A stretch of 64,000 nucleotides of DNA from positions 32,001-96,000 of IMG/VR virus record IMGVR_UViG_3300020190_000012. One strand, written 5' to 3'. Position numbers and translations under genes: made by a program. This stretch comes from a virus. Below, piece by piece: positions 1-22,472 of the stretch (its first letter is position 1; every line of letters begins with the position of its first letter). The notes below the pieces were generated by a model, which saw only the letters and a program-made list of their open reading frames with translations, did not search any database and had not been told where the DNA came from.

Positions 1-467
1 TTTTGCAAAAACAGAGCAGTAAACGGTGTGGAAACTTGAATATTTTTAACACCAGATCGAACAGCCTGATTTGCTGCCACCATACTACAAGCTATGACGG
101 CATCAGCCAAAAGACACGACTCATAGGGTCGATCAACATATCTTTCGCAGTCGTTCAAGATGTGCAGCCATCCAAAATCGTGTATACCAACAACCCGACA
201 GGCAGCAACATGGGCGGCATCTGCATCATCTCCAAAGGAGATAACCAAATCTGGCTTCGCTGATTCACAAAATACGCCAAAATTAACTGCGGCTGCAACC
301 CCCCTAGGCAGTGGCAAGCACCTTGGGATGCCTGAGTCAGTAGAAAGGTCAAAAAACACTCCGATGTGTTCTGGAAAAGATTTTTGAATATGTCGCCATA
401 TGACATCGCCAATCCTTGAATTGGCGGTCAACAGGTGGGGGCTGCACCCTGTGACTGCAATAATCAT
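1..467 (-). CDS. Glycosyltransferase-like protein (GT-B/GT4 N-terminal domain), runs off the window edge; missing from the ORF track
   Basis: ATG at 467 overlaps the TGA of the upstream gene (ATGA). My translation stays open to base 1: MIIAVTGCSPHLLTANSRIGDVIWRHIQKSFPEH...AKPDLVISFGDD...LLADAVIACS, resembling a GT4 N-terminal Rossmann domain. Confidence 0.6.
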   Translation of the reverse strand, partial: MIIAVTGCSPHLLTANSRIGDVIWRHIQKSFPEHIGVFFDLSTDSGIPRCLPLPRGVAAAVNFGVFCESAKPDLVISFGDDADAAHVAACRVVGIHDFGWLHILNDCERYVDRPYESCLLADAVIACSMVAANQAVRSGVKNIQVSTPFTALFLQ

Positions 468-1375
468 CCTGGCGGTTGCCTCCAAGAATCACCAAATCCA
501 TATGGGTGGTGATTCTGAGCTTCGGTTGCACTCCAACTGATCCTGGCAGCCTTCAACAACGTGCCCTTATGGACGAAGCCATAATCTATGCTTTTTGGCC
601 AGCACTTGTACAAGAATCGTTCAACGAGAATGACTTTAGGATCATTTGCCACGAGATACTCGTTTTTTGCTGGCTCAGATAACCTGATCACCTGACCGTC
701 AACAACCTCAGCCACATGGCAATCTTCAGATATGAATACACTGTCTAGCAAGATGAACTGACCCGCAGTAATACCGTCTGTATCTGAAAGTCTCACAAAA
801 ACATCACCCTGCTCGATATTCGATAAGACTGACACGTATCCCTTATCGCCTGCAATTGCAACAGGGTTCTTCTTGAGACCAGTTTCTACGATGTTGGCAA
901 GATGCATTAGATACTCGTAGCCCTCCTCCTGTGTTGCATCTGCAACATAACAAGTGATGTCAACCTCGTATGTTTCGTTGCTGACCTCCAAGCCAATCCA
1001 CTCAGAATTCTTGCTCTTACCATTTATTGTTATTGCAGGATATTTTATGATGTTGTCTGGATCTCCAAGATATATGCCCTGAACAAATTGCCCCTTGACA
1101 GCCTTTCGCAAATTGCAACTCCCAACGTTCCAATCAGAAAACCTGACCCCCTCTTGAAGAACTACATGCGTCTCATCGGGAACCTCCGTAATAACATGCG
1201 GATATTCAAATTCAGTACCATCGGTGATCAGTACATCATCTCCGACTTTAAAGCGATTAGAGGTTCTCAGTGTCAAAACACGGTCACCAACAGCGATGGG
1301 TTCAGTTATTGGGGATTCAGAACTGACCCATCTGTGTATGATTTGCCGAAGACTAGTGAGAACCTTATACATCAA
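464..1375 (-). CDS. Putative tail-completion/neck protein with two inserted beta-rich repeats
   Basis: Core IYLGDPDNIIKYPAITI...YEVDITCYV...LANIVETGLK resembles tail-terminator folds. Two similar segments (LRTSNRFKVGDDVLI / VRLSDTDGITAGQFIL). Lies in the structural operon. Confidence 0.5.
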   Translation of the reverse strand: MMYKVLTSLRQIIHRWVSSESPITEPIAVGDRVLTLRTSNRFKVGDDVLITDGTEFEYPHVITEVPDETHVVLQEGVRFSDWNVGSCNLRKAVKGQFVQGIYLGDPDNIIKYPAITINGKSKNSEWIGLEVSNETYEVDITCYVADATQEEGYEYLMHLANIVETGLKKNPVAIAGDKGYVSVLSNIEQGDVFVRLSDTDGITAGQFILLDSVFISEDCHVAEVVDGQVIRLSEPAKNEYLVANDPKVILVERFLYKCWPKSIDYGFVHKGTLLKAARISWSATEAQNHHPYGFGDSWRQPPG

Positions 1376-1635
1376 AGTGGATATTTCATTATTTTGTCAA
1401 CAACCCTATCAATCATATCTTCCACAATAGCATTTATCTTGTCCATCTTGACAGCATCTTCGGACGAAGCACTTCTTACTGCAGCATCTTGAGTTGCCTC
1501 TTCTCTTGAAGAGAATATTCTGGTTCCAGCATATATGCGAGATGGAGCGCTCGAAGACTCGGCAGACCCATCTTTTATGGCATTGATCTGCGCCAGAGCC
1601 GAGCTCACAATGTCTCCAATTGCTTCCATGATCAC
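1372..1635 (-). CDS. Hypothetical protein (87 aa)
   Basis: 4-nt overlaps with both neighbours. Confidence 0.6.
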   Translation of the reverse strand: MIMEAIGDIVSSALAQINAIKDGSAESSSAPSRIYAGTRIFSSREEATQDAAVRSASSEDAVKMDKINAIVEDMIDRVVDKIMKYPL

Positions 1636-2357
1636 ATATCTGGAATGTCTCTAGTCGAATCCTGATCAGTATTGGGTAGTGAATATCTGCCCAAAAGCGT
1701 AGGATTGGCAAATCTACTTGAGATTCTGGTCTGACCATGAAGAATAGTTCTTCCGTTCAATATGTTCATCAACATGACGCGTGCCTGATTTCTCAACCCC
1801 TTGCCATACTCGTTCTTCTCTGTGCCGCTCATGGCAGAGAAATGTCTGTCAAACAGGCTGGCAACACAAAGACGCGCTGATGCTCCCGGGACTGGGTCGG
1901 GGAATTTTACTCGCAGCAATCGTGATTCTGCTGCCGCAAAATCAACCAAGAAAGGGTCATTAACGATAAGGGTTGTACCGTTCGCAATATTAGCAACTGT
2001 CCTTCTCTCATTTAGAAAACCGTTTGTCAGAACAATTATATCACCCGGTACGAATACATTTGCATTGGGGCTCATGATGACGATATCTGTGTTGTATGGA
2101 TCAATATCCACCACGAGTTCAAATTCGACATCACTTATCTCTTTCAGTGGAGTGCTGTACATGGAGCTCAAAATAGAGTTTATGTACTCGTCAGCAAGCG
2201 CGATGTGCTGATCAAGAATCTCATCAGTTATCACATTACCCTTGAGGCTATTGCCAAAATTTATGAGACTACCTTTCTGTGTGAGCGTTGGATCTGTCGC
2301 GGTCGTAAAAGACTGGGCAAAAACACGCTTGCAGAGATCTCTCGTTGCGTATCCCAT
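1632..2357 (-). CDS. Head-tail adaptor, Mu gp36/DUF1320-like, with an inserted beta domain
   Basis: MGYAT...HIALADEYINSILSSMYSTPL...FPDPVPGASARLCVASLF...ARVMLMNILNG matches the gp36-like adaptor pattern. Confidence 0.65.
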   Translation of the reverse strand: MGYATRDLCKRVFAQSFTTATDPTLTQKGSLINFGNSLKGNVITDEILDQHIALADEYINSILSSMYSTPLKEISDVEFELVVDIDPYNTDIVIMSPNANVFVPGDIIVLTNGFLNERRTVANIANGTTLIVNDPFLVDFAAAESRLLRVKFPDPVPGASARLCVASLFDRHFSAMSGTEKNEYGKGLRNQARVMLMNILNGRTILHGQTRISSRFANPTLLGRYSLPNTDQDSTRDIPDM

Positions 2358-3517
2358 CAGACCTGATCCCTAGTTATAATTCCATTAAGAAGTCTGTTCT
2401 TTACAATCTGCGCAGATGTTAACAGTCCAGAGCAAACTGCGTTTAGTGGGTCTGCCGCCTTGCGGACATCCCCAATCTTGAATGGCAGTTGTATGGAAGA
2501 CATGATTCTTGCCAATTTATTCTCAAAGCCGTTTGGCATAGAAGTTCCACCGGCGATCACCACATCAAGAGGCTTGTCAAACTGACTCTTAACTTCTATG
2601 AACTTCTTGGCAAACAAACCGACGACATGACGGAGCATGGCATCATAATATGCGTCAAGCGCAAAAGCTATGTCATTATCTTCATCGATGTTTTCAAAGT
2701 CAAGAACCCGCTCCTTGAAATCTATCACCTGAGACACTGGCACCGCAGTCTGCTCTGAAACTTGTCTGTCAACCCAATCTCCGCTCCTGCTAACAGACAT
2801 GCCAAGAATCTGCATACCTTTGTATGCTACAACGCAATTTGCCCTGCCGGCACCAAATGACATTCCTATTCCACTGAAAGGGACTTCTGTGCCGTCATCT
2901 AGAACCACAGACGGCCTCTCGCTGAGAATGACAGCAAGACCTTCCTCTATGACCTTAACATTCCAATTAAGGCGGGTAAACATGGCCTTGAGACGAGCCG
3001 AATGAAAAATGCTGTCCTGACCAGCATCCGCGCATGGACTGGACACACATATGCAAACAACTGAATTTTCATCAGGAGCCTTGCCAATAGAAGATTCTAT
3101 GACTCCAGAAAGAACCAAACTCTTCTTTGGCTCGTCTCTGTTGAGGACTCCGTCCTGAAGTGGGCGGCGAATCTCAACCGACCCTGGAAATAACTTGGCA
3201 ACCTGCATTGAGTCATCTCCAACGACAAAGTACTGCATGCCATCTTTTACATATCTCCAACCATTTCTAGTCAAGATCTCTTCCAGTTCTGATGAATATG
3301 GTATTTCTACAAACGCGTTCCTGACCGAAGATACGCTTATGTTGTCACCCACTAGTTCCGCTGTCTGAAAAAACATAGTTCCCACATCCACGCCAATGGC
3401 TCGGGTGCTTGGTTTTTCTTCTTCAAAACTATTCACAGATTTCGCGGGAGCGTTCGCCAACGACGACGACCGTTTTAAGGAAGAAACATTCTGCACGGCT
3501 TTGTGGTGGGCGTTCAT
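2357..3517 (-). CDS. Actin-family ATPase, volactin-like
   Basis: Phosphate-1 GVDVGT, connect-1 IEEGLAV, phosphate-2 MSFGAGRAN, adenosine IAGGTSMPNGF, connect-2 DPLNAVCSG. RNAFVEI, VVGDD, RRPLQDG and SGDWVD resemble haloarchaeal volactin as I recall it. Confidence 0.85.
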   Translation of the reverse strand: MNAHHKAVQNVSSLKRSSSLANAPAKSVNSFEEEKPSTRAIGVDVGTMFFQTAELVGDNISVSSVRNAFVEIPYSSELEEILTRNGWRYVKDGMQYFVVGDDSMQVAKLFPGSVEIRRPLQDGVLNRDEPKKSLVLSGVIESSIGKAPDENSVVCICVSSPCADAGQDSIFHSARLKAMFTRLNWNVKVIEEGLAVILSERPSVVLDDGTEVPFSGIGMSFGAGRANCVVAYKGMQILGMSVSRSGDWVDRQVSEQTAVPVSQVIDFKERVLDFENIDEDNDIAFALDAYYDAMLRHVVGLFAKKFIEVKSQFDKPLDVVIAGGTSMPNGFENKLARIMSSIQLPFKIGDVRKAADPLNAVCSGLLTSAQIVKNRLLNGIITRDQV

Positions 3518-4047
3518 TAGAGAAGACCCTCCAATTCATCTAGTTTTTTCTTCATATCGGATGCGTCCTTAGATTTGCCTTTTTTAGGCTCTATATTTGT
3601 GGAAAGGTTGGATGCCATGCGTGAAACAACTTTTTCATGTATGGCTATAAGGTTTTCGGCTTGCGGCTCAGATATTGATTTAATGACATCAACATTTTCA
3701 ACCTGTGAGGAGACATGAACAACCTGAGGGGCAGGCATGGAAGATAGCATTTTTTTTAACTCTACTAGTGATTCTGCAATTGCGGATATGGCCTTACCAT
3801 CATTCTCTTCTCTAACTATTTTTCTCAATGCGTCCATGTCTATGGCATTCTGACGACCATGGTTAGTATCTTTTGATACTACCCTTAGATATCCAGCAAC
3901 CACGGCCTTTTTTACTGATGGGCTTGCCTCGACAATTCTCCTGTCAGCAACACTGTCAAGATCTATAGACTGACTTGGAGATAGCACCACCTTCAGGTCT
4001 CCGAGTGACAAATGCTGCCTAGTTGTATTTACCACTAAAAACATCAT
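3517..4047 (-). CDS. Hypothetical protein: N-terminal shared module plus helical, charged C-terminus
   Basis: Translationally coupled to the actin-like gene; contains PSVKKAVVAGYL. Confidence 0.7.
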   Translation of the reverse strand: MMFLVVNTTRQHLSLGDLKVVLSPSQSIDLDSVADRRIVEASPSVKKAVVAGYLRVVSKDTNHGRQNAIDMDALRKIVREENDGKAISAIAESLVELKKMLSSMPAPQVVHVSSQVENVDVIKSISEPQAENLIAIHEKVVSRMASNLSTNIEPKKGKSKDASDMKKKLDELEGLL

Positions 4048-4259
4048 CCGTGCAATCTGGTTCGAGGTAGAGGTTTGAAATTTTTTGATGGGTCTATAAT
4101 CATCGTCGAACTCTTTTTACACGATGGGCAAACCATGTGTATTGTGCCCTGCGAGAAGTTAATCTCCACATTGCCACGAGCCGCCGTACTAGAGAAGCAC
4201 GCTGGACACACCACTCTGAACACCTCATGCTCATGGGTCACCTCCTCTCTTTTAGGCAA
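4044..4259 (-). CDS. Small zinc-ribbon protein
   Basis: CPAC...CPSC; overlaps both neighbours. Confidence 0.65.
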   Translation of the reverse strand: MPKREEVTHEHEVFRVVCPACFSSTAARGNVEINFSQGTIHMVCPSCKKSSTMIIDPSKNFKPLPRTRLHG

Positions 4260-6507
4260 GGAACAAACTCCTTGCCAATTTCAACATGTAATCCCTTACA
4301 TCTTCGTAAGAACATCCTGCCTCTTTGAAAAATGGAACATCATCTATAAATGCCATTCTTTGCTCTCGAGCGCGTCTTGCCGTGCCAAGACCGCTATCTC
4401 GCCAACTCTTGATATCAGGTTCTTCTCCAATGAAGTTCATAAGTGCAACAGCTTCTTCATTGTTTATGATGACCGACTGGTTGAGTTGCCAAGCCAAGCC
4501 GGCAATCACTCTTGCAGCATTGTATTTATCTTTGTATCTATTTGTCGCCCTATCGAATGCTGCCACAAGAGCATTGTCTAACTTTTTCTGCTCTTGAGGA
4601 TCGGCATTTGTCAACGATGCTATCCATGCCGCAGGATTGAATATGCCGCCATCTTGCTTCAGTTTTTGGTATATCAACTGAACCTCATTAGGTCCACGAG
4701 CGGGAATGCGCTCAACAGTTCTGTTCGTATTGTCTTTCAACAACTGCATCATGCACTTAGCCATTTCTTCACTGTTGATGGCACCCTTGATCTCCTGCAC
4801 CTTATCTTCAAAAGGAAGACCAGAAATTCTTGGGGCCAATGTGTGCACAAGCACATATCTGCAGCGACGCTTAGCCTCTTCTTTTTTGGAAAGAGCTCTC
4901 GGTTGAGCCTGCTGAAGACTGTGAAGATCAGATCTTTCGAAATCATCAGGTGCAAAATTCGTCCAGTCCAACGGAGGATTAGCCCTATTTGCCCTGACAA
5001 TTGCAGTCAAAACCCTGATGCCCTCATTAATTTCACCACTTTCTGTGGTGATTACAATTTGAGCGTGATTGTGGTTGACATACGCTGTCTTCTTTCTACC
5101 AAACAGCGACTTCAGGTGGATAAGTGCAGGAATTGAATGGCCACGCTGCGCAACATCTATAAGCGCATCAAGCCCGTTGATGATCCTATTACGTGCGTTC
5201 GTTGCATCTTCGAGAGACTGCTGCAAAATATTTCTCATGGGCTCTACGGCCGCCTGTTGGCTCTTCATCTGCTCAGCACCAATCGCCTCAATGGAAAGTT
5301 TATCAAGTATGCTGCTCAAAGAGCCAATATGGGTGTCAAGTTTGATGGCGACATCATTCTTGAATCCTTCAAGAATTCTGATAGCCTTATCGTTGTATTG
5401 AGTAGGAGCCTGAGACTGAAGTTGCTCAATCCCACTATGAATGTTTGCAGCAAAGTCTTCGGAAGTTGTAGTTGCTGAACTATCCGGAACTACATCAAGA
5501 CCTCGTTTCTCTGGATCCACTTCTCCTAGAGCCCGAGCGGAGTCGTACTCATCCTGCGCGAACTCGTTAACTCCGAGTTCACGCCTACGCTTGTCAACCA
5601 CATATGCAAACATATGTGCAGTCGCATCTTCGTCGCCACCCTGTAGAAGATTAACAAGCCTGCACAGCAGCGTGATGCCAACAACATCAAAAGCAGATGA
5701 CGTTCCTGGCATCTGTGCAATAGTTCTGTTAGATACTGTCTGAACATTGGTCTTGCCAGACTCATTCAAAACACTTTGGACACGCTGTGGCATCTTCTCA
5801 CGATGACGATTAAAGAAACTATATACGAAGTTGCCCCTAGAGGCCTGAAAGTCAGAAATCTCTATGGCGTTTCTTCCGCCCTCAATCTCATCTAGGTATA
5901 CGGTATATGCTAGGTTTGATCTTTGCCTAAACCATTCAGCATTCAAACCATTCCTGACACATGCTGCACGAGCAGCACTTTGTTGGTTAACAAGAGCTGC
6001 CTTGCCAAATGCTGGCAAACCACCTTTGGATATCACGTCATTCAGGTGTGCGATGATGCTTAGCAGGTCATCTCCGCCTTCGGGGAACGTTGAACATGGA
6101 GACTCGTCCTGATTTACGCCTGGAACTGCTCTCATCTGCCTTGGGAGCACAATTCCATCCTGGACAATCTGGGCATCACCCTGATCCTGCATGTTCGCCT
6201 CGGGGGACTTCAACCACTCTTGCAAACATGTTAAACTTTCAGACAAAATATCTTGTGCTTCATCGGCAACACGACTGTCATCCTCGTATTCATTAATTTT
6301 TACATAAGCCTCCTCAGACAGGCGATTCAACTCCTCCCGCCGAACATCAACAGACCTATCAGCGTTATTGGCAGCCTGCTCCATGCTTGTGATCACGCCA
6401 GTTAGGTATGCATGTAATTCCCTGTTGCGACTATATATATAATTGAGTTTACGAGTCGCCGACTCGCAAGATCCAGCTGCGGTTTTTTGAAATTTCTGTG
6501 AAAACAT
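4252..6507 (-). CDS. Large helical hypothetical protein (~750 aa), possible internal virion protein
   Basis: Long ORF (track 4252-6600). I prefer ATG 6507 (MFSQKFQKTAAG), which gives the N-terminal K-x-A pattern; the start is uncertain. Confidence 0.7.
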   Translation of the reverse strand: MFSQKFQKTAAGSCESATRKLNYIYSRNRELHAYLTGVITSMEQAANNADRSVDVRREELNRLSEEAYVKINEYEDDSRVADEAQDILSESLTCLQEWLKSPEANMQDQGDAQIVQDGIVLPRQMRAVPGVNQDESPCSTFPEGGDDLLSIIAHLNDVISKGGLPAFGKAALVNQQSAARAACVRNGLNAEWFRQRSNLAYTVYLDEIEGGRNAIEISDFQASRGNFVYSFFNRHREKMPQRVQSVLNESGKTNVQTVSNRTIAQMPGTSSAFDVVGITLLCRLVNLLQGGDEDATAHMFAYVVDKRRRELGVNEFAQDEYDSARALGEVDPEKRGLDVVPDSSATTTSEDFAANIHSGIEQLQSQAPTQYNDKAIRILEGFKNDVAIKLDTHIGSLSSILDKLSIEAIGAEQMKSQQAAVEPMRNILQQSLEDATNARNRIINGLDALIDVAQRGHSIPALIHLKSLFGRKKTAYVNHNHAQIVITTESGEINEGIRVLTAIVRANRANPPLDWTNFAPDDFERSDLHSLQQAQPRALSKKEEAKRRCRYVLVHTLAPRISGLPFEDKVQEIKGAINSEEMAKCMMQLLKDNTNRTVERIPARGPNEVQLIYQKLKQDGGIFNPAAWIASLTNADPQEQKKLDNALVAAFDRATNRYKDKYNAARVIAGLAWQLNQSVIINNEEAVALMNFIGEEPDIKSWRDSGLGTARRAREQRMAFIDDVPFFKEAGCSYEDVRDYMLKLARSLFLA

Positions 6508-6615
6508 GATGTCTTTTCCCATAAATGGTATTTCTGACTTATCACGACCTATCCTTGTGAGGAGGTGTGAGGAGAACATGCGCCCCGCCCAACACCACAC
6601 GCCGCCACGGTGGTG

Positions 6616-7305
6616 TCAGTTTTTTTCCTTGTATTTGAGGTCTATCTGGGAAACAAGACCATGTCGCTGACAAGATTCTGGTGGGAATTCAAAATAACCC
6701 ACCCCGCCCAGGCCCTTGAGTCTTCTCAGGGCGTCTGTAAGGCCATTCCTAGACGACCTGCAGTCTAGGTCGCACTGAAATTCGTCCCCAGCAACAACTG
6801 CCTTAGATGACTTGCCAAGCCTGGTCAGGAATAGGTGCATCTGCTCGGGAGTGCTATTTTGAGCCTCGTCCATGATCATGAAAGTGTTTTCAAACGTGAC
6901 GCCACGCATGAAGGCAAGAGGTAGTATTTCAATCTGATCAGATGCCATCATTCTGCCAGCCGTGCTCTTACCAAGTATCTTCTCCATAATCATTCTGACC
7001 GGAGAAACAAAAGGATCAAACTTTTGCTCAAGAGACCCAGGAAGATATCCTAGCCTTTCACCCGCACTGACATAGGGACGCGTCAAGACAATTTTACTGA
7101 TTCTTTTTTCACTCAACATCCGCAGGGCCATACCAGTGGCAATGGTTGTCTTACCTGTTCCTGCCATTCCATATAACATAGTCACCGCGCTGTCCTCAAT
7201 AATTTTAATAGCCTTCTTCTGATGATCATCAAGTGGTTTGAATGCTATGTGGGGCCCAGAACGATTGTCCTCAACCAACTGCTTGCGCCTAGACTTGTTG
7301 CTCAT
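6616..7305 (-). CDS. phoH: PhoH-family ATPase
   Basis: GMAGTGKT Walker A, LTRP, GERLGYLPG, FMRGVTF, MDEAQN, LTRLG, GD..QCDL, RH.LV. Confidence 0.95.
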   Translation of the reverse strand: MSNKSRRKQLVEDNRSGPHIAFKPLDDHQKKAIKIIEDSAVTMLYGMAGTGKTTIATGMALRMLSEKRISKIVLTRPYVSAGERLGYLPGSLEQKFDPFVSPVRMIMEKILGKSTAGRMMASDQIEILPLAFMRGVTFENTFMIMDEAQNSTPEQMHLFLTRLGKSSKAVVAGDEFQCDLDCRSSRNGLTDALRRLKGLGGVGYFEFPPESCQRHGLVSQIDLKYKEKN

Positions 7306-7727
7306 GTCGCCTTTCCTCCTAGCGTTAGAATTACAAAACCAGACGAACGAGAATCACGGCGGCACACAATACCGTCCGTGAGCATTGAGCCGTAGAAAGA
7401 GTCCAACTCTCCCATACGTGATACGATTACGTCCCAAACAGGCGAAGGGAGGCGGATACGCCTCCCTTCAAGTAACTGCAGTCTTATTTTTATTGGGTTA
7501 AAGTCTGTCAACGACTCAACCTGTACTAAAAAGTCGTCAAATTCATTAGCCAATTCTAACTGCCAAAAACCAGATTCGTCTCTTGAACGCCTCAAATAAT
7601 CTATCTGATCGTAGCCCATTGACTCTCGCAGATGAGCCAACTGCTCGGCATTGAGAAGACGGGTCAATCTGCAAAATTCTGGATATGATTCGAAAATGGG
7701 TACGTCTTGCGTCTTTTTTCGTTTCAT
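7302..7727 (-). CDS. Hypothetical protein
   Basis: ATG 7727 overlaps the upstream TGA (ATGA); the track start at 7766 is probably too long. Confidence 0.6.
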   Translation of the reverse strand: MKRKKTQDVPIFESYPEFCRLTRLLNAEQLAHLRESMGYDQIDYLRRSRDESGFWQLELANEFDDFLVQVESLTDFNPIKIRLQLLEGRRIRLPSPVWDVIVSRMGELDSFYGSMLTDGIVCRRDSRSSGFVILTLGGKAT

Positions 7728-8020
7728 GTCCTGATGCTCAAGGGGGCGTTGAGCATGATGCGACACATGTTCAACACATGGGTGGTATCAGCATCTGATT
7801 CGCCAGCAGCGAACTTAACCAAAAGTCCGTTGTCAAGAGCAATACCCCTCCCTGAAAGCAAAATGTTTCTAAAATTTTGAGTTATCCTATTCACTGCAGG
7901 ATCATCATTGTTGATGATGTGATTTTTCATCTCTTCAGTGGCAAGGGCGTAAAAGAAACAATCATCCTCCCCTGCAACCTTGTCAAGCAACTCTCGCAAA
8001 ACTTTCTTGTTTACGATCAT
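7724..8020 (-). CDS. Hypothetical protein (98 aa)
   Basis: Coupled by 4-nt overlaps on both sides. Confidence 0.6.
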   Translation of the reverse strand: MIVNKKVLRELLDKVAGEDDCFFYALATEEMKNHIINNDDPAVNRITQNFRNILLSGRGIALDNGLLVKFAAGESDADTTHVLNMCRIMLNAPLSIRT

Positions 8021-9015
8021 ACACCACCACCTGTAAATATGTACCTAAACCATCTACTCCTGCCGCCAGGTAAAGTGTATTCAGGAGTGACAATATTTCT
8101 ACTCTTGGGATATGGGCCAAGTTTCTTGCCATCCAAGAAGCCTTTTACACTCTCTTCATAATTCTTTTTCAAAGTGTCTAGACTGCTCGAAAGATTTGAC
8201 GCACGCTCAGCACCGCCAAAAACAAGTTGCGGCTCCTGAAAAGCCAAAGACAGCATCATCTCTCTTATGGCATCGGCTGCGGCGCCGTAAAGAACAGCTG
8301 GGACAATCTCGCTTGGCACTGAAAAAAGACTGTAGTTGCTTCTGGGTGGATAAAAATTGAACTTGCCAAGTGCATTCGCCAAAAATCTGTACAACTGATC
8401 ATTGGAAAACCATCTGAAATTGTAGTCGGCATTCACAATGTCATATGATGTCAATGGTATGTCAAATGTAACTGTACCACGAAAATAATTCGTAGAAAAG
8501 CCCTCGTCTACGATGTTATTGTTTCTGTAGATTATGACGCCTGCTGACTGATTCCACCTCGGGAAAGAAAAGGCGAAAGTGGCGTTGTCTTTTGATGTAC
8601 GACCCTGCTCAAAATACACAGGTATGTTCATGGTTGGTCTTATGTGGTATTCAAGAGCAACTATAAGATCCCTAACCTGCCCAAAGTAAACACCTTCTGG
8701 ATCTGGTCTCTCATTTATGACAACCTCTTGCGTAATCGTGTTTGTTTCAATCCCATCATTATATGACCAGGTTAAATCCCAACGACCAACTTCTGCATCA
8801 GATGCAACCGACCATATGTATGCATAATAACCGTCAGATATCGTAATTGCGGTGTCTGCATCGACATCAACCTCTCCAGACGGACTGGTCAGAGTCACAG
8901 ACACATCAGTGGCTGCGACGGGCTGAGAGTTGAGAGATGTCAAACACAGGAACAAACTGTTTGAAGTGCCTTGGGTAAATGTTCCTTGAGACTCTGTCGA
9001 TTGACTTAGTGCCAT
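8017..9015 (-). CDS. Putative virion structural protein: N-terminal Ig-like domain and adaptor-like helical C-terminus
   Basis: VSVTLTSPSG...GYYAYIWSV...GRWDLTWSY is Ig-like; WFSNDQLYRFLANALGKFN...VLYGAA resembles head-tail adaptors. Confidence 0.5.
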   Translation of the reverse strand: MALSQSTESQGTFTQGTSNSLFLCLTSLNSQPVAATDVSVTLTSPSGEVDVDADTAITISDGYYAYIWSVASDAEVGRWDLTWSYNDGIETNTITQEVVINERPDPEGVYFGQVRDLIVALEYHIRPTMNIPVYFEQGRTSKDNATFAFSFPRWNQSAGVIIYRNNNIVDEGFSTNYFRGTVTFDIPLTSYDIVNADYNFRWFSNDQLYRFLANALGKFNFYPPRSNYSLFSVPSEIVPAVLYGAAADAIREMMLSLAFQEPQLVFGGAERASNLSSSLDTLKKNYEESVKGFLDGKKLGPYPKSRNIVTPEYTLPGGRSRWFRYIFTGGGV

Positions 9016-9788
9016 CAGAATTTCCTCAAGTCTTGCGAGGTTCTTCCTGTTGATGTTACTTCAATACGACCGGGAATACCTGCTTGAGAAACCTGAACAC
9101 TAGGCATAGGAGAGCCAAAACCGACAACTGCTCCAGAAGGAGATTCAAAACACAAGGCATACATTCCGGATTTTATCGCCACCACCATGGCATCAGTCAA
9201 TTCAGTAAACTTCAAAGATCCATATGGCGGACTATAAGAAACTCGCCTGAGGTCTTGTGTGGTTCTTAGACCTGCATCTACTGTACGCAGTGAAACTCTG
9301 CTGACCTGCGCAGTAGATGTTCCTGCGGACACCTTGGCGTATACAACTTTATCATTGAAAGGATAGAAAACCGATGCAGATCCAGCCCTAGATCCAGACA
9401 TAAAAAAGTTGTCAAACCTACTGTTTTCGTCAGATGAAAAGGCTCGCAAAGCGATTTGCGAAGGATCGTTCCCGCGAATAGCCACGCCAAGAACAGGATC
9501 CCACAACAACTCCTCATGAGACATAAGCAGATCATCAGCAGCTGGCGAAGCTCCCATCATCTCATAGATGCAGACATTCACTTTATCATTTTTAATGCCG
9601 TCAGCCACTACTGAAGCCGCATACATCGGGAAATGGAGCAAATCCAAAGTTATGACTGCAGCAGAATGTGTTATGGCAGATGAAAAAATGCCTGAAGACG
9701 GGTTTAGCTTTAGACCATCTTCTGATGTGCATATACAGTAAAAAACAGATTGTCTTGGTGCAATAAATCTCACCGAAAATGACGGCAT
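9015..9788 (-). CDS. Hypothetical beta-rich protein
   Basis: 257-aa ORF, 1-nt overlap with the downstream gene. Confidence 0.6.
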   Translation of the reverse strand: MPSFSVRFIAPRQSVFYCICTSEDGLKLNPSSGIFSSAITHSAAVITLDLLHFPMYAASVVADGIKNDKVNVCIYEMMGASPAADDLLMSHEELLWDPVLGVAIRGNDPSQIALRAFSSDENSRFDNFFMSGSRAGSASVFYPFNDKVVYAKVSAGTSTAQVSRVSLRTVDAGLRTTQDLRRVSYSPPYGSLKFTELTDAMVVAIKSGMYALCFESPSGAVVGFGSPMPSVQVSQAGIPGRIEVTSTGRTSQDLRKF

Positions 9789-11266: not shown

Positions 11267-11869
11267 TTATAGCCTTATTTCGGCAGCGTTTCTGATCCCG
11301 CCGGGCAAAACATCATCGTCATCATCAGCTACCATATCATCACTATCTCTCCTACGCACAGAGCGTCGAGATTTCTTACTTGCTGCTTGAGCTTCTTTCT
11401 TGAGTTTCAGTTGCTCGTTGTGTGCCTGACATATGGCTGACAATTCCTGTCTAGACAACCTGATCAGACGACCTGATGATATTAAAGACAACACCTGGGC
11501 CGGAATGTCTCCATATTCTTTTTTAATCAAGGATAAAGACTTACCATCTGTTTTGCCATCAAACTTTAAAGGAGGCTTAAGATTGGTTAATATCAAGCAT
11601 CCATCCTTAGTCGAAGCTATAAGGTCTTTCTCTTGTGATGCCTGATGGGCAGAAGAAACAACGCCTGCAAACACAGGAAGAGAAACAGTCTGCGAAACAG
11701 AGTGATTCCCCAAGACCACATCTTTGAGAGTCATCAAACCACCATCAACCACGACTGGCACGTTCATCAGTTCGGGATGAACCACCACCCTATCAACGGG
11801 AAGAGAATAAACCTTTTCTCCCATAAACACAACCCTGTTAAAATCTCTGTCATAAAATGCTTTCATCAT
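11267..11869 (-). CDS. Hypothetical protein with a basic/acidic tail
   Basis: 200-aa ORF coupled to the upstream glycosyltransferase. Confidence 0.65.
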   Translation of the reverse strand: MMKAFYDRDFNRVVFMGEKVYSLPVDRVVVHPELMNVPVVVDGGLMTLKDVVLGNHSVSQTVSLPVFAGVVSSAHQASQEKDLIASTKDGCLILTNLKPPLKFDGKTDGKSLSLIKKEYGDIPAQVLSLISSGRLIRLSRQELSAICQAHNEQLKLKKEAQAASKKSRRSVRRRDSDDMVADDDDDVLPGGIRNAAEIRL

Positions 11870-13209
11870 CTTGTCACTAGGCCTTTGAATTGCGAAATAA
11901 CGGCGTCTGCAGAGCAGATATCAGTTAATTTTGATGCTGCCCTTAAAGCCATCAAATTTCTCTTTTTGTCAGATGCAGACCAACATGCTCTCATAGATTC
12001 TCCAAATCTTTGGATAAATTCTACACCAACTGTATCCGCCATAACCGTCCCATCCCATAAAATTGTGCCAGTTATGCCAGGCTTAATGGTGTTCTTATTA
12101 ACATCAACCAAAAAGGCTGAAGAATCATCGAGAAAATCGAGTTGACCGCCAAACCTTGGGGCAACTGAAGGTATGCCGCACATGGCGGCTTCTGCATAAG
12201 GAAGACAAAATCCCTCTCCTCGAGCAGCTAGCACGCATGCATCCACAGATCTGTACAATTTAGCAAGATCTGCTTCAGTAATATTTTTGGATATCCTGAC
12301 CACAAGGGGCGGATGCTTCTTGCCACACTTTGACACCAAATCAGAAACCGTGTTTGCGAATCGTTTTTGAGCATCTTCTCCGCGCTTATCTCTATGCGCC
12401 ACGATGAGACAGACATCATCTGATGGGTCAAATTCATTAAGAAATGACTCGATTACATTGGTTCCAACCTTTCTAGGGCTCATCCCGAATATCGTAAAGA
12501 ACTTGAAACTTGGTAGAGGATGTGAGAATTGATATTCTGCGCCTTTGGTGCAAAAAACACCGTCGTTAATGTGTGGGCTCAAGACTTTGGCATCAATTCC
12601 GTACTTTCTGAAAGTGTCACAGCAGAATTTGCTTACGCACCAAACCTTTTCATACTTCTTGGCAGAGGTCACAACAGCATCATTAAGGGTCTCTGATTCA
12701 ACAGTCGTATAGAGGACTCTAATGCCAGATTGGCCTGGCGAACCAAATGTAGGAACCACACTATGTATGTCAAGCATGCCTTGACATCTTGGCCTTATTG
12801 GTAATCCGCATCGTGCGTCTTCGTACAAAAGCTGAGGCTTACCAAGGTCTACTGGGTCAACGCTTACTGAAATGTTTTTTGCCGTAAGTACCCTAACCAA
12901 ACCTCTGTTCACCTTGCCATATCCTGAGTAGTCTAAAAATTGACCCCTGACAACGACATCATCAAACATGGCATCACCAGATGGCTTCTTCGCTTTCGAT
13001 GACATTTTTGCTAGCGCGACCTCTATGCCGTCGGTCTGATCGTGATCTACCACAACAACATAGCCCTTTGCAACCGCCGAACGAAGAGATGGCGCGGATC
13101 TCACCCGATCTGACGGTATCTCAAATTTATCACCATCATCACCAGCGGGGATGCGGTCATCCCATTCGGGAACATATACGGGTATACCAAGGGCGTTTCT
13201 TACGATCAT
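11866..13209 (-). CDS. GT4-family glycosyltransferase with an extra N-terminal module
   Basis: SGYGKVNR; LYRSVDACV; RGEGFCLPYAEAAMCGIPSVAPRFGGQLDFL (EX7E motif). Confidence 0.9.
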   Translation of the reverse strand: MIVRNALGIPVYVPEWDDRIPAGDDGDKFEIPSDRVRSAPSLRSAVAKGYVVVVDHDQTDGIEVALAKMSSKAKKPSGDAMFDDVVVRGQFLDYSGYGKVNRGLVRVLTAKNISVSVDPVDLGKPQLLYEDARCGLPIRPRCQGMLDIHSVVPTFGSPGQSGIRVLYTTVESETLNDAVVTSAKKYEKVWCVSKFCCDTFRKYGIDAKVLSPHINDGVFCTKGAEYQFSHPLPSFKFFTIFGMSPRKVGTNVIESFLNEFDPSDDVCLIVAHRDKRGEDAQKRFANTVSDLVSKCGKKHPPLVVRISKNITEADLAKLYRSVDACVLAARGEGFCLPYAEAAMCGIPSVAPRFGGQLDFLDDSSAFLVDVNKNTIKPGITGTILWDGTVMADTVGVEFIQRFGESMRACWSASDKKRNLMALRAASKLTDICSADAVISQFKGLVTR

Positions 13210-14833: not shown

Positions 14834-15703
14834 TCAGGTGGTTGTAGCCTCCACGGTGATGACGGACACAGCGTAGTCGTTCATGACCACGATGCCGACT
14901 TCCTCGTAGATCACCCAACCAAGACGCAACTTCTTCGGATCATCAGCGGGAAGGACAGTGATGTCCTGGCGGATGGGGAAGGCGCCCACGGTGTCGGGAC
15001 TTGCAGTAACGATGACCTTGCTGTCATCGAGTTGGCTGGACACATGGATATCAGCCGTCCACAGGTGACCGTAAAGACCAGTGGTGAGGATCTCACGTGT
15101 GGTGGCCTCATCATAGAAGTCTTTACCGAAGCTGCGAACTGCCGAATAGGACTCAGGGTGCATGACCACCTTTGAGGCCACCAGATCGTGGGTCTCAATG
15201 TTCTTGTAGGCAGAGTTCAGAGACGCAGTCTCCAAAGTGCCGCTGTTGGTGATCTCGTTAGATGATGTAGTAGCAGCAATCAGAGCGTTGAAGATATTGC
15301 GATCCTCTTCCTTCTGGATTGCCTCTTTTGCCTTGATCTGGGCACGGTCAACGATGTAGAAGCGACGTGCTTTGATCTCGGACAAACGGATGGTGGGGTG
15401 TGCTGCGATCTCGAATGTGGGGACAAGAACTTCCTCACCCTCGGTGATCTGATCAGGCACTGCACCCTGACGGGCAACGACTACTGCCACGGAGGCAACA
15501 TCGCGCTCGTAGCGGGGAAGAGCGCCCTGTGGGAGCTCGTCCACCATCAGGAGCTTGCGACCGACGGCCTGGTACTCCAGGGAACGCCGAATCGGCTCCA
15601 CCATCGCCTGGGCAAGGGCAACGCGCCCCTCCTCAGTCGACAAGGCCTGTGCGATCACGGCCTCTTTCTCATCGTAAGTCAAACCATCTTTGTTGATGCT
15701 CAT
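14834..15703 (-). CDS. Major capsid protein (HK97 fold, compact, encapsulin-like size)
   Basis: Position after the protease and decoration genes, strong codon bias, AAGGA RBS before ATG 15703, own terminator. Motifs LAQAMVEPIRRSLEYQAVGRKLLMVDELPQGA, VPTFEIAAHP, LGWVIYEEVGIVVMND. Confidence 0.88.
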   Translation of the reverse strand: MSINKDGLTYDEKEAVIAQALSTEEGRVALAQAMVEPIRRSLEYQAVGRKLLMVDELPQGALPRYERDVASVAVVVARQGAVPDQITEGEEVLVPTFEIAAHPTIRLSEIKARRFYIVDRAQIKAKEAIQKEEDRNIFNALIAATTSSNEITNSGTLETASLNSAYKNIETHDLVASKVVMHPESYSAVRSFGKDFYDEATTREILTTGLYGHLWTADIHVSSQLDDSKVIVTASPDTVGAFPIRQDITVLPADDPKKLRLGWVIYEEVGIVVMNDYAVSVITVEATTT

Positions 15704-15767
15704 TGTGTTTTTTCCTTTCTCCGACACCCCCTGATTCACGCATCAGGGTGGTAAGTCGGAAGATTCA

Positions 15768-16401: not shown

Positions 16402-19400
16402 TCACTTGAAGACCCGACGCAGTACGTTGGTCTCAGTCTGATCTGCCAACTCCACCTGCTGCTGCAGTCGGAACATGGACGAGATCTTGGACTTGAGATC
16501 TCCATACGCATTACGCTCACTCTTCTGCTCGGGGATCACAAAAGCCGTTTCTGACCCTGCCGAGGCCGTCTTCAGGCCCTTGGCGACGACACCCTCTGCG
16601 AACATTGCCTTCTCAAGGTCCACGAGCTGAGCCACCTTGTAGCCCATCAACTCTTTGGCTTTTGCAGGCAGACTGTCTGCAGAGATCATCCCTGCAGCAA
16701 CCATCTTGCCAGCAACCTTGAGAGCCAACTCGCTGGAATCTTCACCAGCCTTCTTCTTTGCATAGCCGCCAACTGGACCGGACTTACCCGATCCAACCTG
16801 GCCGCCTGTCATTAGATTCTGCTTCTCTGCACCGTCCTGACCGCCAACCGGTATGGAAGGCAGGCTCAGACCTGCAGACTCGTTACCCTCTGGAACTTCA
16901 AGTTCTCCCATGCCTTCAAGACCTTCAGAGGTGCCCACGTCGCCAAGATCTTCCTGGTTCTGCACCAACTCGGTCTTGAGACCAAGCTCAGAGGCAAGCT
17001 TGGCCAATGAATCGGAGAATGCAGCCTTCTGGTTATGAAGCTTGCCAGAGGCAGATTTACCTGCTCCTTGGACACCGCCAGTGGCCATATTGCCCTTCTC
17101 TCCCTTGATCTTGTCGCCACTGAAGCTAGGACCATCAACGGGAACCTTGGGCATGTCTGCATCGAAGCCTTCGCCGTGCTCTCTGCTGAGCGGCTTGCCG
17201 CCGTTCTCAACGACCTTTGGCGATTTCAGACCAGCCTTGCCCGTCATGACGGTACCAAGTTCTGGCTGCTTCTGTGCATGACCTATCTCGACAGCCTTCT
17301 CTCCTGCCTCCTTGGTCAGGGCAGATGCAAGACGTGATATGTCAAGTTCCAACTTGCCTACGCCAACAACTCTGCCACGACGGAGGGCCATGGCCTCCTT
17401 CTCAATGTCGAAGGTCTCGTTTGACTTGGATTTGGCATAATTTGGAGCTGTCTTTTCCATGACTGCATCTTTCTCTTCTGTTTCTCCATTCGGATTATCG
17501 TCAGAAGAGTCTTCGTCAGAAGAGTCTTCGTCAGAAGAGTCTTCGTCAGAAGAGTCTTCGTCTTCAACAGTAGGTGACACCTCGACTGACTCTTCTTCAT
17601 CCACGTCTTCGACATCGTCGATGTCGTCGACCTCAACGGAATCTTCAGGCACATCCGTGCCAACATCATCAGACATCTCAGCCCCCATGTCGACCTCTGT
17701 GTCCATATCACTCTCATCTTCACTCCAAGCCTTAGTTAGAGCCTTCTGTATCTGCTCGTCAATCTGCTCAAGAACTTCTGGGGTCACATCGAGAGTGACG
17801 GAAATGGTCTTTTTGTCACCAGATTCAGAATCATCCTCGCCATCGAATGGATCGGATTCTTCCGTTTCATCCTGCTGTGACAAGTCAGTCTCTCCGTCGC
17901 CATCTGCGAGATCATCGGCGAGATACTCCTCGTCCTCTGCATAGGCAGCTTTGATCATCTCACAAGCATTGGAAGCCTGCTTGAGACCCATGCCTTCGCG
18001 GACAAGGTCCTCTACGCACTCGCACATAGGATCCGGCTGCGCCCAAGATGAGGCAACCTTGTCAGCCACGATTGTGCTGTACACATTCGCACCGGCAAGT
18101 TTGCTGCACACGCAATCTGGAAGGCTGTTTCCACGGCAAGGACCGCTGAGCGCCACGGAATCAGCGCCATACCTCCTGGCGAGTTTTTCCACGCACTCAT
18201 TCATTGGGAATTCACCATGCATGGTGAATGCCTTCTTGAATGAGCCAATTGCAGTCTCATCTTCAGAAGCTATCTTGACCTGCTTTACGGCACCCTTGCT
18301 GAGGGCTTCGTTCAAAACTTCGGCCTTCTTGACAACAGACATGCCGTCGAATGTTGCACGATCAACGCCAACTTCATTCAGGGCAGAATTAATAGATGCA
18401 CGCTTACGGGCGCAGCTGCTGCATGATGCCTTCTTAAACTCTGGCACCCATTCCCACTGAGCATACACATCCTTAGGAGAGGTGGTCGACGCGGCAAGAC
18501 GAACCTTGTACATCTGACCAGAGTCCAAGCACATCCATGTTTCGTTGTCAAGTTTGACGGTATTTCTCTCGCCAGTGATTGGGCTCACAGATCCTAGAGC
18601 ACCCTTGCTGGCGATCTTCCTGAGTGTTTCTGGAGTGATGCGGGTGGATGCAGCAACAGGAGGAAGCCCTGGTGCCCCTAGGGGTGGCATGCCGGGTGGC
18701 AGTTCGGCGCCAATCCCGCCAAGACCCTTATCTGGCTCTGCAGGGTTGTCGCCGCCAACATCCTCTTTGTCAATATCTCCGTCAGTGATATTGTCAAGAA
18801 GAGATGCATCTGGAATAACCTTGATGGTGAATCCACTGCCGCAACCCGGGCCTTTGCACTGGCTCTTGCCGCCAGCAACATCAACATCCTGGTTGCCACA
18901 CACGACGCAAACCGCAGCTGGTGGCTTGGCCTTGCCGAGGGTGTCTGTGTCGAGACCAAGAGGGTCTGTTGGCGCCGAAGCGGGAGCTCCAGGCATACCA
19001 GCGGGGGCCCCTGGTGCTGGCGGAGCGCCAGTCAGCGCCTCTGCGCCAGGCATGCCGGGAGGCATGGCACCTGGAACCGCAACACCAGCACCCATGCCTG
19101 CTGGATTTAGGGCGCTGGGCATGGCGCCTCCAACTTGAGCCTTCTTCTCAAGTCGCTCAATCTCCTCAAGCAACTTGGCACGACGAGATATCCTGTCTTC
19201 TCGAGAATCATAAGTCTCAGAAGATGCGACCGCGACCTTTGTCTTGGGGGCTTTCTTCATAGTGCTCTCCACATCGGATGCAAACTTGTGGTATGCCTCT
19301 TCCTCTGCAGAAGTGAGCATTTTTGCCTCCTTGACCACTGCCTCAACAATGCCATTGGCATCGTCGAAATCTATTGACATCGGTACAACATCAACACCAG

Positions 19401-22062: not shown

Positions 22063-22472
22063 GCCCTCACTGTCCTCGGGATTCTTACATTAGCCAAATG
22101 GGTCAATGTATAGTTGAACTGATTCTTAGGATATGGTATTCTGTATTTATCTGAAAGGAAAGACAGGGCCGAAGCAATGTTAGTAAAATATTTTCCATAC
22201 GGGCTGTAGACTTTAGACTCAAATTTCATCCAGTTGGATGGCAACTTTTTGATACCTGCAAAAAATGCCTTCTTGAGATCTTTGGTTCTCGCTGGCGAGC
22301 ATACAACATAATAGTCTGAGTTGGTGGTGTAGTCGTGGCCTTGCCATCTGTGGTATGCCCCAGAACCAATTTCCCTCTCGTATCTCTTCTTGAGAGGCTC
22401 GGTACGCTCAGTGTATACCTCTTCCCAATTGATGTTACGGTCACGTATCCTGCGTGCTGAAATCTTCAGCAT
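22059..22472 (-). CDS. Basic hypothetical protein between portal and protease
   Basis: ATG 22472 minimises overlap with the portal; the stop overlaps the protease ATG. Confidence 0.65.
   Translation of the reverse strand: MLKISARRIRDRNINWEEVYTERTEPLKKRYEREIGSGAYHRWQGHDYTTNSDYYVVCSPARTKDLKKAFFAGIKKLPSNWMKFESKVYSPYGKYFTNIASALSFLSDKYRIPYPKNQFNYTLTHLANVRIPRTVRA

Follow-up and report, generated by a model that had tools for sequence, protein, structure and literature searches.

A volactin-family actin-fold protein with a candidate adaptor among the virion genes of very large uncultured phages

The IMG/VR virus record IMGVR_UViG_3300020190_000012 (here G000; 130,267 bp, CheckV completeness 29%) encodes an actin-fold protein of 386 residues amid its virion genes. 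We analysed a stretch of 64,000 nucleotides of this record, G000:C1:32001-96000, referred to below as the window, in which the actin gene occupies positions 2357-3517 of the minus strand and directly follows the gene for a 176-residue protein (3517-4047, minus strand), a candidate adaptor. By sequence the 386-residue protein is an actin-fold member of the volactin family (PF25216) and neither an MreB nor a ParM. Phages of a clade with genomes of some half a megabase and no tubulin carry the actin as a single-copy core gene, and the genes of its cassette, which is more than a chance arrangement, are under purifying selection. We consider it somewhat probable that the actin polymerises, and that the partner docks on it and holds a cargo for head completion or head-tail joining.

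Sequence and predicted fold of the actin

Against Pfam, the 386-residue protein matches Volactin (PF25216) with an E value of 2.9e-57 and 195 bits, where the cut-off is 35, and residues 40-369 align with positions 2-321 of the 321-position profile. The only other family at E<=0.1 was MreB_Mbl (PF06723), a partial match over residues 95-253 that, with 21.9 bits, falls under its cut-off of 27. Hsp70 (PF00012) gave no match at this threshold and no Hsp70 substrate-binding domain was found, nor did the Pfam ParM/StbA family match. The initial annotation of this DNA had named a set of segments as diagnostic of volactin, and all of these can be read in the protein: DVGTM, RNAFVEIPYS, VVGDD, RRPLQDGVL and EGLAVILSE, together with FSGIGMSFGAGRANCVVAY, SVSRSGDWVD, GGTSMPNGF and LPFKIGDVRKAADPL. 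Family members and Escherichia coli MreB can be aligned with the protein over all five actin motifs, namely phosphate-1 (DVGT), connect-1 (EEGLA), phosphate-2 (GMSFGAGR), adenosine (AGGTSMPNGF) and connect-2 (DPLNAV), and the same alignment also holds RPLQDGV and GDWVD. A sequence search of the PDB with the actin gave nothing significant, the best match being MamK at an E value of 0.43, and a profile of its homologues had no match there at E<=0.01.

The AlphaFold2 model of the actin, made from an alignment of 29 homologues, has a predicted local distance difference test score (pLDDT) of 86.6 and a predicted template modelling score of 0.84. Residues 1-27 are disordered and the core runs from approximately residue 38 to 375, so that the model is all actin core plus a disordered tail. 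A Foldseek search of the PDB returned MreB/Mbl, actins, MamK and BeeR at E values of about 1e-12 to 1e-11 and 12-19% identity. In a full VIA scan the best structural matches were the BeeR filament (PDB 8r2n; Z 26.6, 311 residues aligned, root-mean-square deviation 3.6) and crenactin (4bql; Z 25.4, 320 residues, deviation 3.9), followed by Caulobacter crescentus MreB (Z 24.8), actin (Z 22.9), the nucleotide-binding domain of BiP (Z 22.3), MamK (Z 21.8) and FtsA (Z 20.9), with the ParM-type folds below these (Alp7A 19.7, R1 ParM 18.5, AlfA 16.9). The nearest solved folds (BeeR, crenactin and MreB) are thus those of filament formers. BeeR and crenactin differ from the phage protein in that their identity to it is 14-16%, and no PDB chain matched at the sequence level. 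MreB shares the actin fold and the RPxxxG, IEE/NEG, GGD and DP motifs align, but its structure-based identity is 15-18% and its Pfam family stays under the cut-off.

A disordered, Ser/Ala/Lys-rich extension of about 38 residues (1-39) forms the amino-terminus of the protein. It is peculiar to the sub-clade to which this actin belongs: its sequence differs even between the closest relatives, and most of the clade lacks it.

A translationally coupled cassette between head and neck genes

The four open reading frames (ORFs) that the initial annotation had described are all present where it placed them, on the minus strand. These encode a 71-residue zinc-ribbon protein (4044-4259), the 176-residue partner, the actin, and a 241-residue protein (1632-2357) that had been named a head-tail adaptor. 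The coupling proposed for them is visible as a stop/start overlap at each of the three junctions: the zinc ribbon and the partner share ATGA, the partner and the actin share TAATG, which GGAGGG precedes by 9 nt, and the actin and the adaptor-like gene share TGATG. We consider the 241-residue protein a probable head-tail adaptor, on matches of its N-terminal part to the Mu gp36/DUF1320 type that are weak but concordant: PF07030 (Mu Gp36) at 22.6 bits, under the cut-off of 24.7, and likewise sub-threshold in three of five orthologues scanned (19.5-22.6 bits); phrog_195 at 3.7e-6; and PDB 8rka_B (DUF1320) at an E value of 0.029 in a profile search.

Along the minus strand the genes follow in the order terminase, portal, capsid protein, PhoH, 782-residue protein, zinc ribbon, 176-residue partner, actin, adaptor-like protein and large tail-side proteins. 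Because the flanking genes are identified in this way, the actin cassette can be placed between the head genes and the neck and tail side of one long minus-strand block, which agrees with the earlier assignment of the actin to a virion morphogenesis operon.

Conservation of the cassette among half-megabase phages

A word-indexed search found 413 homologues of the actin at E<=1e-3; the best 120 of the 413 all carry PF25216, at 55-100% identity, many of them on contigs of 100-465 kb. Scanning IMG/VR with the 29-homologue alignment gave 39 related loci; the contigs that carry them reach 548 kb. When the proteins of the window were compared with these loci by tblastn, the adaptor-like gene was found in all 39, directly downstream of the actin, a gene for a 303-residue protein (464-1375, minus strand) in 38, a PhoH-like gene (6616-7305, minus strand) in 31, the partner in 29, the zinc ribbon in 23, a 332-residue gene in 22 and the gene for the 782-residue protein (4252-6600, minus strand) in one. 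The order by position is near-constant, with products of 714-1185, 56-77 and 167-222 residues, the actin, and products of 237-246, 73-114 and 297-312 residues. The partner could be extracted and aligned from 33 of the 39 loci, plus three duplicates; L006, L032 and L039 were left out of this count for a short flank or broken frames. The pair of actin and 176-residue protein singled out in the initial annotation is therefore conserved among related phages.

Five relatives are rated 98-100% complete and measure 461-548 kb; three of them have terminal repeats. Each of the five carries one PF25216 gene, and tubulin (PF00091) was found in none of the five by a search whose control was positive in 13 of 14 cellular genomes. 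The identity of these five to the window is 72-77% for the major capsid protein, 55-61% for the actin and 49-55% for the large terminase. Ratios of non-synonymous to synonymous substitution rates (dN/dS) against the closest relative (L003) rise from 0.085 for the partner through 0.098 for the adaptor-like gene, 0.107 for the actin and 0.135 for the zinc ribbon to 0.175 for an 87-residue protein encoded between the adaptor-like and 303-residue genes (1372-1635, minus strand).

The exception in the block is the 782-residue protein that adjoins the cassette, with a dN/dS of 0.62. It is conserved by position only, is 714-1185 residues long in relatives, and has no Pfam family in eight orthologues and no PHROGs family. 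Ejected or internal virion proteins often evolve fast, and the actin gene stands among virion genes; it could be imagined that the actin, perhaps with the 782-residue protein, is packaged in the capsid, ejected with the DNA and acts as soon as the next infection begins. We regard this as highly improbable, since we see no sign of packaging and the actin is strongly conserved, unlike its variable neighbour.

In a species-genome collection searched with two narrow patterns, a single locus appeared (L041, also P0282), a 7.6-kb contig binned with a Candidatus Asgardarchaeum abyssi metagenome-assembled genome (MAG). Because the whole cassette is present on it (zinc ribbon, partner, actin, adaptor-like protein and a 306-residue protein) we read it as a mis-binned phage contig, most likely phage DNA and not an archaeal gene.

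Position within the volactin family

The family is large. A full HMMER scan of 1.84 billion cluster representatives returned 827 at E<=1e-3, of which 485 reach <=1e-10 and 173 reach <=1e-30. The family is not confined to archaea, its named members being from Patescibacteria, Planctomycetota and Bacteriovoracaceae MAGs, and the ESM Atlas neighbours of the actin fall in clusters with PF25216 in 100% of their members, most of them viral and one archaeal. A quick IQ-TREE tree (LG+G4, 150 rows) was built from the window protein, 24 phage loci, two GenBank huge phages and 121 of 150 representatives, with E. coli MreB and FtsA as outgroup; the 29 representatives dropped were fragments or matched in two pieces. 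The phage actins that carry the gene module described above form one clade with a Shimodaira-Hasegawa-like approximate likelihood ratio test (SH-aLRT) value of 100 and a stem of 0.47, within a 47-row clade of unnamed sequences (SH-aLRT 100). Four acidic, haloarchaeal-looking representatives (isoelectric points 4.15-4.26) and the named bacterial members are placed elsewhere in the tree, and E. coli MreB falls outside the family.

On this tree the phage actins are a clade of their own inside PF25216, apart from the haloarchaeal-looking branch. The initial annotation had the protein following haloarchaeal volactin and not MreB or ParM. As to the family this holds: the sequence belongs to Volactin, the nearest folds are actin-type filament formers and E. 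coli MreB is an outsider. The haloarchaeal part has to be taken with reserve, as PF25216 is not specifically haloarchaeal and the haloarchaeal-looking branch is separate. The likeness to volactin is shown as membership of the same Pfam family, without implying that the phage protein is a sister of HVO_2015.

Volactin itself (VolA, HVO_2015 of Haloferax volcanii) is described in PMC10869688 as forming dynamic filaments in vivo whose tips touch the membrane, and the neighbouring HVO_2016 is a CdpA-like membrane protein with four transmembrane helices (PMC12126565). The phage actin is like it in belonging to the same family over its full length and in sharing the family motifs, including S-F-G-A-G. 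It differs in being phage-borne, in forming a separate monophyletic branch, apart from the four acidic, haloarchaeal-looking sequences, and in being set among head and neck genes beside a soluble 176-residue protein and a zinc ribbon instead of a four-helix CdpA-like neighbour.

This kinship with a cell-shape actin (PMC10869688), and a weak resemblance to MreB in both sequence (21.9 bits) and fold (Z 24.8), may point to a cytoskeleton for host takeover, which would replace or disturb the shape or division machinery of the host, for example by enlarging or stabilising the cell for very large virions. We think this very unlikely. Such genes are usually early and variable, but the actin is fixed in the late structural block and conserved like the hallmark genes. 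No membrane-type hydrophobic segment that could bind a membrane was seen in the actin, the partner or the zinc ribbon, where the maximum 19-residue Kyte-Doolittle mean is 0.83-1.08 (0.83-0.84 for the partner and the zinc ribbon), and the neighbour is not of the four-helix type found beside volactin (PMC12126565).

Several cellular or unassigned PF25216 proteins (P0211, P0223, P0267, P0136 and P0175) are fusions to Wzz and ParA-like modules, to a ParB helix-turn-helix or to a Ser/Thr kinase, and some proteins of this group are tandem duplications of 729-750 residues.

The 176-residue partner

The partner belongs to a family of 131 proteins of 175-203 residues that carry no Pfam domain and are only viral in the Atlas. 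Its members share a conserved N-terminal region of about 60 residues, a variable linker, a conserved helix of the form I-H-x-R/K-T/V-V-D/S-R and a near-invariant end, xELEGLL; in the window protein the helix reads IHEKVVSRM and the C-terminal tail ends ELEGLL. In the AlphaFold2 model residues 1-60 have a pLDDT above 90 and form four strands, three short helices and one further strand, the linker is disordered, and helices at 127-150 and 162-175 are predicted with a pLDDT of 65-75. The ELEGLL tail occurs on no other ORF of G000. Across the genomes G001-G005 the pattern was found in two only (G001 and G002), once in each, just upstream of the actin gene. A sequence search of the PDB gave nothing significant for the partner, and a Foldseek search with its fold had no match at E<=0.001.

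As predicted, this would be the build of an adaptor, with a folded N-terminal domain, a disordered linker and terminal helices. In the ParM/ParR/parC system the C-terminal helix of a small adaptor docks on the actin, and the modelled phage partner appears to share this architecture. The differences are that the partner gene here lies upstream of the actin, reversing the order, that no centromere-like repeat is present in positions 1-9100 of the window, and that the actin scores Z 18.5 with R1 ParM and lacks a ParM/StbA match in Pfam. A second precedent is the prophage CGP3 of Corynebacterium glutamicum, whose AlpA is encoded upstream of AlpC, is co-transcribed with it and binds both DNA and AlpC (PMC4446434). 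According to the same paper, efficient replication of CGP3 requires both proteins, the repeats that AlpA binds lie within its own promoter region, and alpAC, located at the end of the prophage, are expressed early and promote DNA replication. As there, a phage-encoded actin is preceded by the gene for an adaptor, here a candidate one. Set against AlpC as described, the cassette of the window differs in lying in a structural block, in having no repeat array nearby and in a partner with no DNA-binding family.

These precedents raise the possibility that the actin positions DNA in the manner of ParM or AlpC, for replication, for partition in a carrier state or for delivery to the packaging site, with the zinc ribbon or the 176-residue protein as a DNA-binding adaptor. 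Known phage and plasmid actins do act in this way (PMC4446434 for AlpA/AlpC), the zinc ribbon could bind nucleic acid, and ParB helix-turn-helix modules are fused to cellular PF25216 proteins. We nevertheless hold such a role to be quite unlikely here. The cassette keeps its place within the structural block, away from any replication or early locus, and positions 1-9100 of the window hold no centromere-like or iteron array, only three two-copy direct matches of 12-16 nt. The partner has no DNA-binding family in Pfam and no recognisable DNA-binding fold, and the ParM-type folds lie below BeeR, crenactin and MreB.

More distant phage actins

Six more distant members of the family served as queries for a second scan of IMG/VR, which matched 139 viral stretches; 80 loci were kept from them. 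Four of these are of the module clade, three intermediates (L059, L090 and L120) keep parts of the module, and 73 hold 57 distinct actins; no adaptor-like, 303-residue or zinc-ribbon homologue was detectable in the 73, and PHROGs gave nothing informative for the neighbours of the distant actins. A same-strand ORF of at least 100 residues ends within 200 nt of the actin ORF for 44 of the 57 distinct actins. The pattern L-[KRAEL]-x-[LMATVIK]-[RK] occurs in the last 25 residues of 33 of these 44 upstream ORFs, compared with 34 of the 657 other ORFs of this minimum length in the same loci, a contrast that is large but inflated, since the motif was written after the tails had been seen. A typical tail reads DxALxALKALRK and continues with basic residues.

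A hidden Markov model (HMM) of the partner reaches the upstream neighbours in L090 and L059 (E of about 1e-18) and, weakly, those in L105/L106/L110, L064 and L073 (1e-5 to 5e-5). Because the tails and the HMM matches recur despite differing neighbourhoods, we see in them a recurring design among phage PF25216 genes, in which a gene whose product ends in a short amphipathic helix is followed by the actin. In our reading the acidic ELEGLL tail and the basic ALKALRK tails would be the same element. Among the INPHARED genomes only two, the uncultured huge phages LR745208.1 and LR756511.1, have a relative of the actin, at 27-29% identity, and the ORF upstream of the LR745208 actin ends in the same L-x-x-L-[RK] type of tail.

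The cultured Bacillus phage G (498 kb) encodes a 371-residue protein, Gp506 (G3MAP7 in BFVD), with an actin-like predicted fold at a template modelling score of 0.55-0.57 and 15% identity. It was absent from the sequence-search matches in the phage collection.

A proposed role in virion assembly

In the role that we favour, the actin would polymerise with ATP into filaments in the infected cell while the virion genes are expressed. As its adaptor, the 176-residue protein, made immediately ahead of it, would dock on the actin through the conserved C-terminal helical tail (ELEGLL), as the tail of ParR does on ParM, and would hold the cargo, most likely a capsid, neck or packaging intermediate, in its folded N-terminal domain. 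We assign the cargo to head completion or head-tail joining because the gene position is fixed and translation is coupled with that of the adaptor-like gene. Polymerisation, docking, late timing and cargo are all parts that we infer from the analysis, the first of them because volactin forms filaments in vivo (PMC10869688).

Several observations weigh against this picture. The fold of the partner is one of them, as its best VIA match has a Z of only 4.4 (MVP repeat, YqbF, GINS B-domain and ribosomal proteins) and none stands out; because the N-terminal domain thus has no recognisable fold relative, the identity of the cargo is a guess. As to timing, none of the 20 runs that contain the stretch is recorded as RNA. 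The tail of the module clade is acidic, with ELEGLL at the very end, in contrast to the basic ALKALRK type of the other lineages. In LR745208.1 and LR756511.1 the neighbours differ, and the partner HMM gives a non-significant E value of 0.077 for the ORF upstream in LR745208. The actin itself has a Ser in the phosphate-2 loop (S-F-G-A-G) where MreB, FtsA and actin carry an Asp (D-I-G-G-G), a residue common to all PF25216 that therefore does not separate the phage protein from volactin. Finally, the nucleotide-binding domains of Hsp70 proteins score Z 21-22.3, with BiP at 22.3 not far under the filament formers at 24.8-26.6, and among viral predicted structures the best matches to the actin are Hsp70 homologues.

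The last three of these points, the Ser, the Hsp70 scores and the viral structure library, would also fit a non-filamentous actin-fold ATPase, an assembly chaperone or head-completion factor that serves a very large capsid or neck in an Hsp70-like way, with the 176-residue protein as co-chaperone or substrate. The gene is fixed between head and neck genes, and closteroviruses reportedly encode an Hsp70 homologue among their virion genes and build it into the virion tail. Even so, we judge a chaperone unlikely, as no Hsp70 family is matched at E<=0.1 in Pfam against 195 bits for Volactin, the protein lacks a substrate-binding domain, filament formers lead the ranking of solved folds, and the characterised member of the family polymerises (PMC10869688).

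Returning to a filament with a docking adaptor, its generalisation is something that we put forward tentatively and hold to be possible rather than probable. Tubulin-less phages of around half a megabase would build their own actin cytoskeleton and, through an adaptor found only in phages, move or position capsids or neck intermediates, and the same design would be shared by many phage lineages.

Relation to known phage cytoskeletons

To our knowledge, the cytoskeletons built by phages and known so far consist of tubulin (PhuZ and TubZ) or of ParM/Alp-type actins that act on DNA. The pairing of a phage actin with an adaptor is already known (AlpC/AlpA and the ParM type), and what is new here is the actin family, the genomic setting and the phages that carry it. 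Our literature searches, supplements aside, found no description of volactin-family actins in phages. A survey of huge phages names no cytoskeletal items other than PhuZ and the phage nucleus, and neither actin nor MreB appears in its main text (PMC7162821); PMC7824862 mentions only Hsp70 co-chaperones. The proposed likeness to PhuZ is one of function, a phage-built cytoskeleton in large phages. The difference is one of fold, PhuZ being a tubulin, a family found in none of the five complete relatives here.

A different actin family is therefore a core gene, with about terminase-level conservation, in uncultured phages with the largest genomes, where it is tied to virion-assembly genes and to a phage-only partner. 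If the protein polymerises, very large phages may organise assembly in a crowded cell with actin and not tubulin, and the volactin family would have a second, viral biology, in a compact system of two or three genes in which the evolution of actin and adaptor could be followed. If the proposal is true as a whole, these filaments would be to actin what the PhuZ spindle is to tubulin, and would represent a class of viral cytoskeleton that is widespread but has yet to be described. The proteins of the cassette are small and soluble-looking, and study in vitro is therefore feasible.

The surrounding genes and mobile insertions

The stretch is present in 20 DNA runs from lake and other freshwater metagenomes. 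The phage nearest to it in GenBank by terminase is an uncultured one of 485 kb, at 27% identity, and this comparison found no cultured phage close by terminase. PHROGs and Pfam identify the large terminase (32278-34164), the portal (22441-24654, minus strand; 737 residues) and the major head protein (14834-15739) in the window, which also encodes a ribonucleotide reductase, a dUTPase and a sigma factor. Past its low end lie proteins of 910-2658 residues and one match to a minor tail protein. Scans of positions 1-9100 for consensus promoters and terminators remained at chance level.

The PhoH-like ATPase gene at the upstream edge of the cassette (PF02562 at 6e-65; phrog_170) is embedded in the structural block and retained there in the 31 related loci. 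A C-terminal stretch of the portal (residues ~588-693) matches HNH-endonuclease PHROGs. Between the portal and the capsid gene lies an ORF of 1886 residues (16402-22062, minus strand) with a protease-like N-terminus, of which the first ~190 residues match the head-maturation-protease-like phrog_2774 and phrog_18299, the remainder having no family. Two glycosyltransferase-like genes (phrog_2170) also sit inside the structural block, at 11866-13209 of the window and at G000:C1:12582-13646 of the record, both on the minus strand.

Closer to the actin, the zinc-ribbon protein has the form CxxC...CxxC and ends in LPRTR. Its Cys pairs are retained in the window protein and 28 orthologues, with minor spacing variants in three sequences; Pfam zinc-ribbon matches are sub-threshold only, and the start is ambiguous between TTG at 4259 and GTG at 4241. 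Neither this protein nor the actin has a PHROGs family. The 303-residue protein is without an assigned family and had no sequence match in a profile search of the PDB; it is probably a neck or tail-side structural protein.

Ten of the 39 loci have extra ORFs that separate the partner gene from the actin gene; of the five scanned, three encode LAGLIDADG_2 endonucleases, another an HNH endonuclease, and the fifth matches no family. Free-standing homing-endonuclease genes of the LAGLIDADG_2 or HNH type were located at L014:7175-8002, L015:7181-8005, L010:7277-7999 and L016:6678-7592. The actin itself is also a site of insertion. Inteins (Intein_splicing plus LAGLIDADG) were found in all three relatives scanned by Pfam (P0121, P0123 and P0131), and about a dozen further representatives of the family match in two pieces, several of them at twice the normal length. 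The phosphate-2 loop of the actin is surrounded by at least two sites of insertion, of which one immediately precedes a near-invariant Cys, C228 in the window protein. Inteins in the actin and homing endonucleases beside it would fit a highly conserved target. In two of the complete relatives the large terminase is likewise found in two pieces, within frames of 1005 and 1047 residues (G002:C1:386539-389520 and G004:C1:53011-55890), which suggests an insertion, perhaps an intein.

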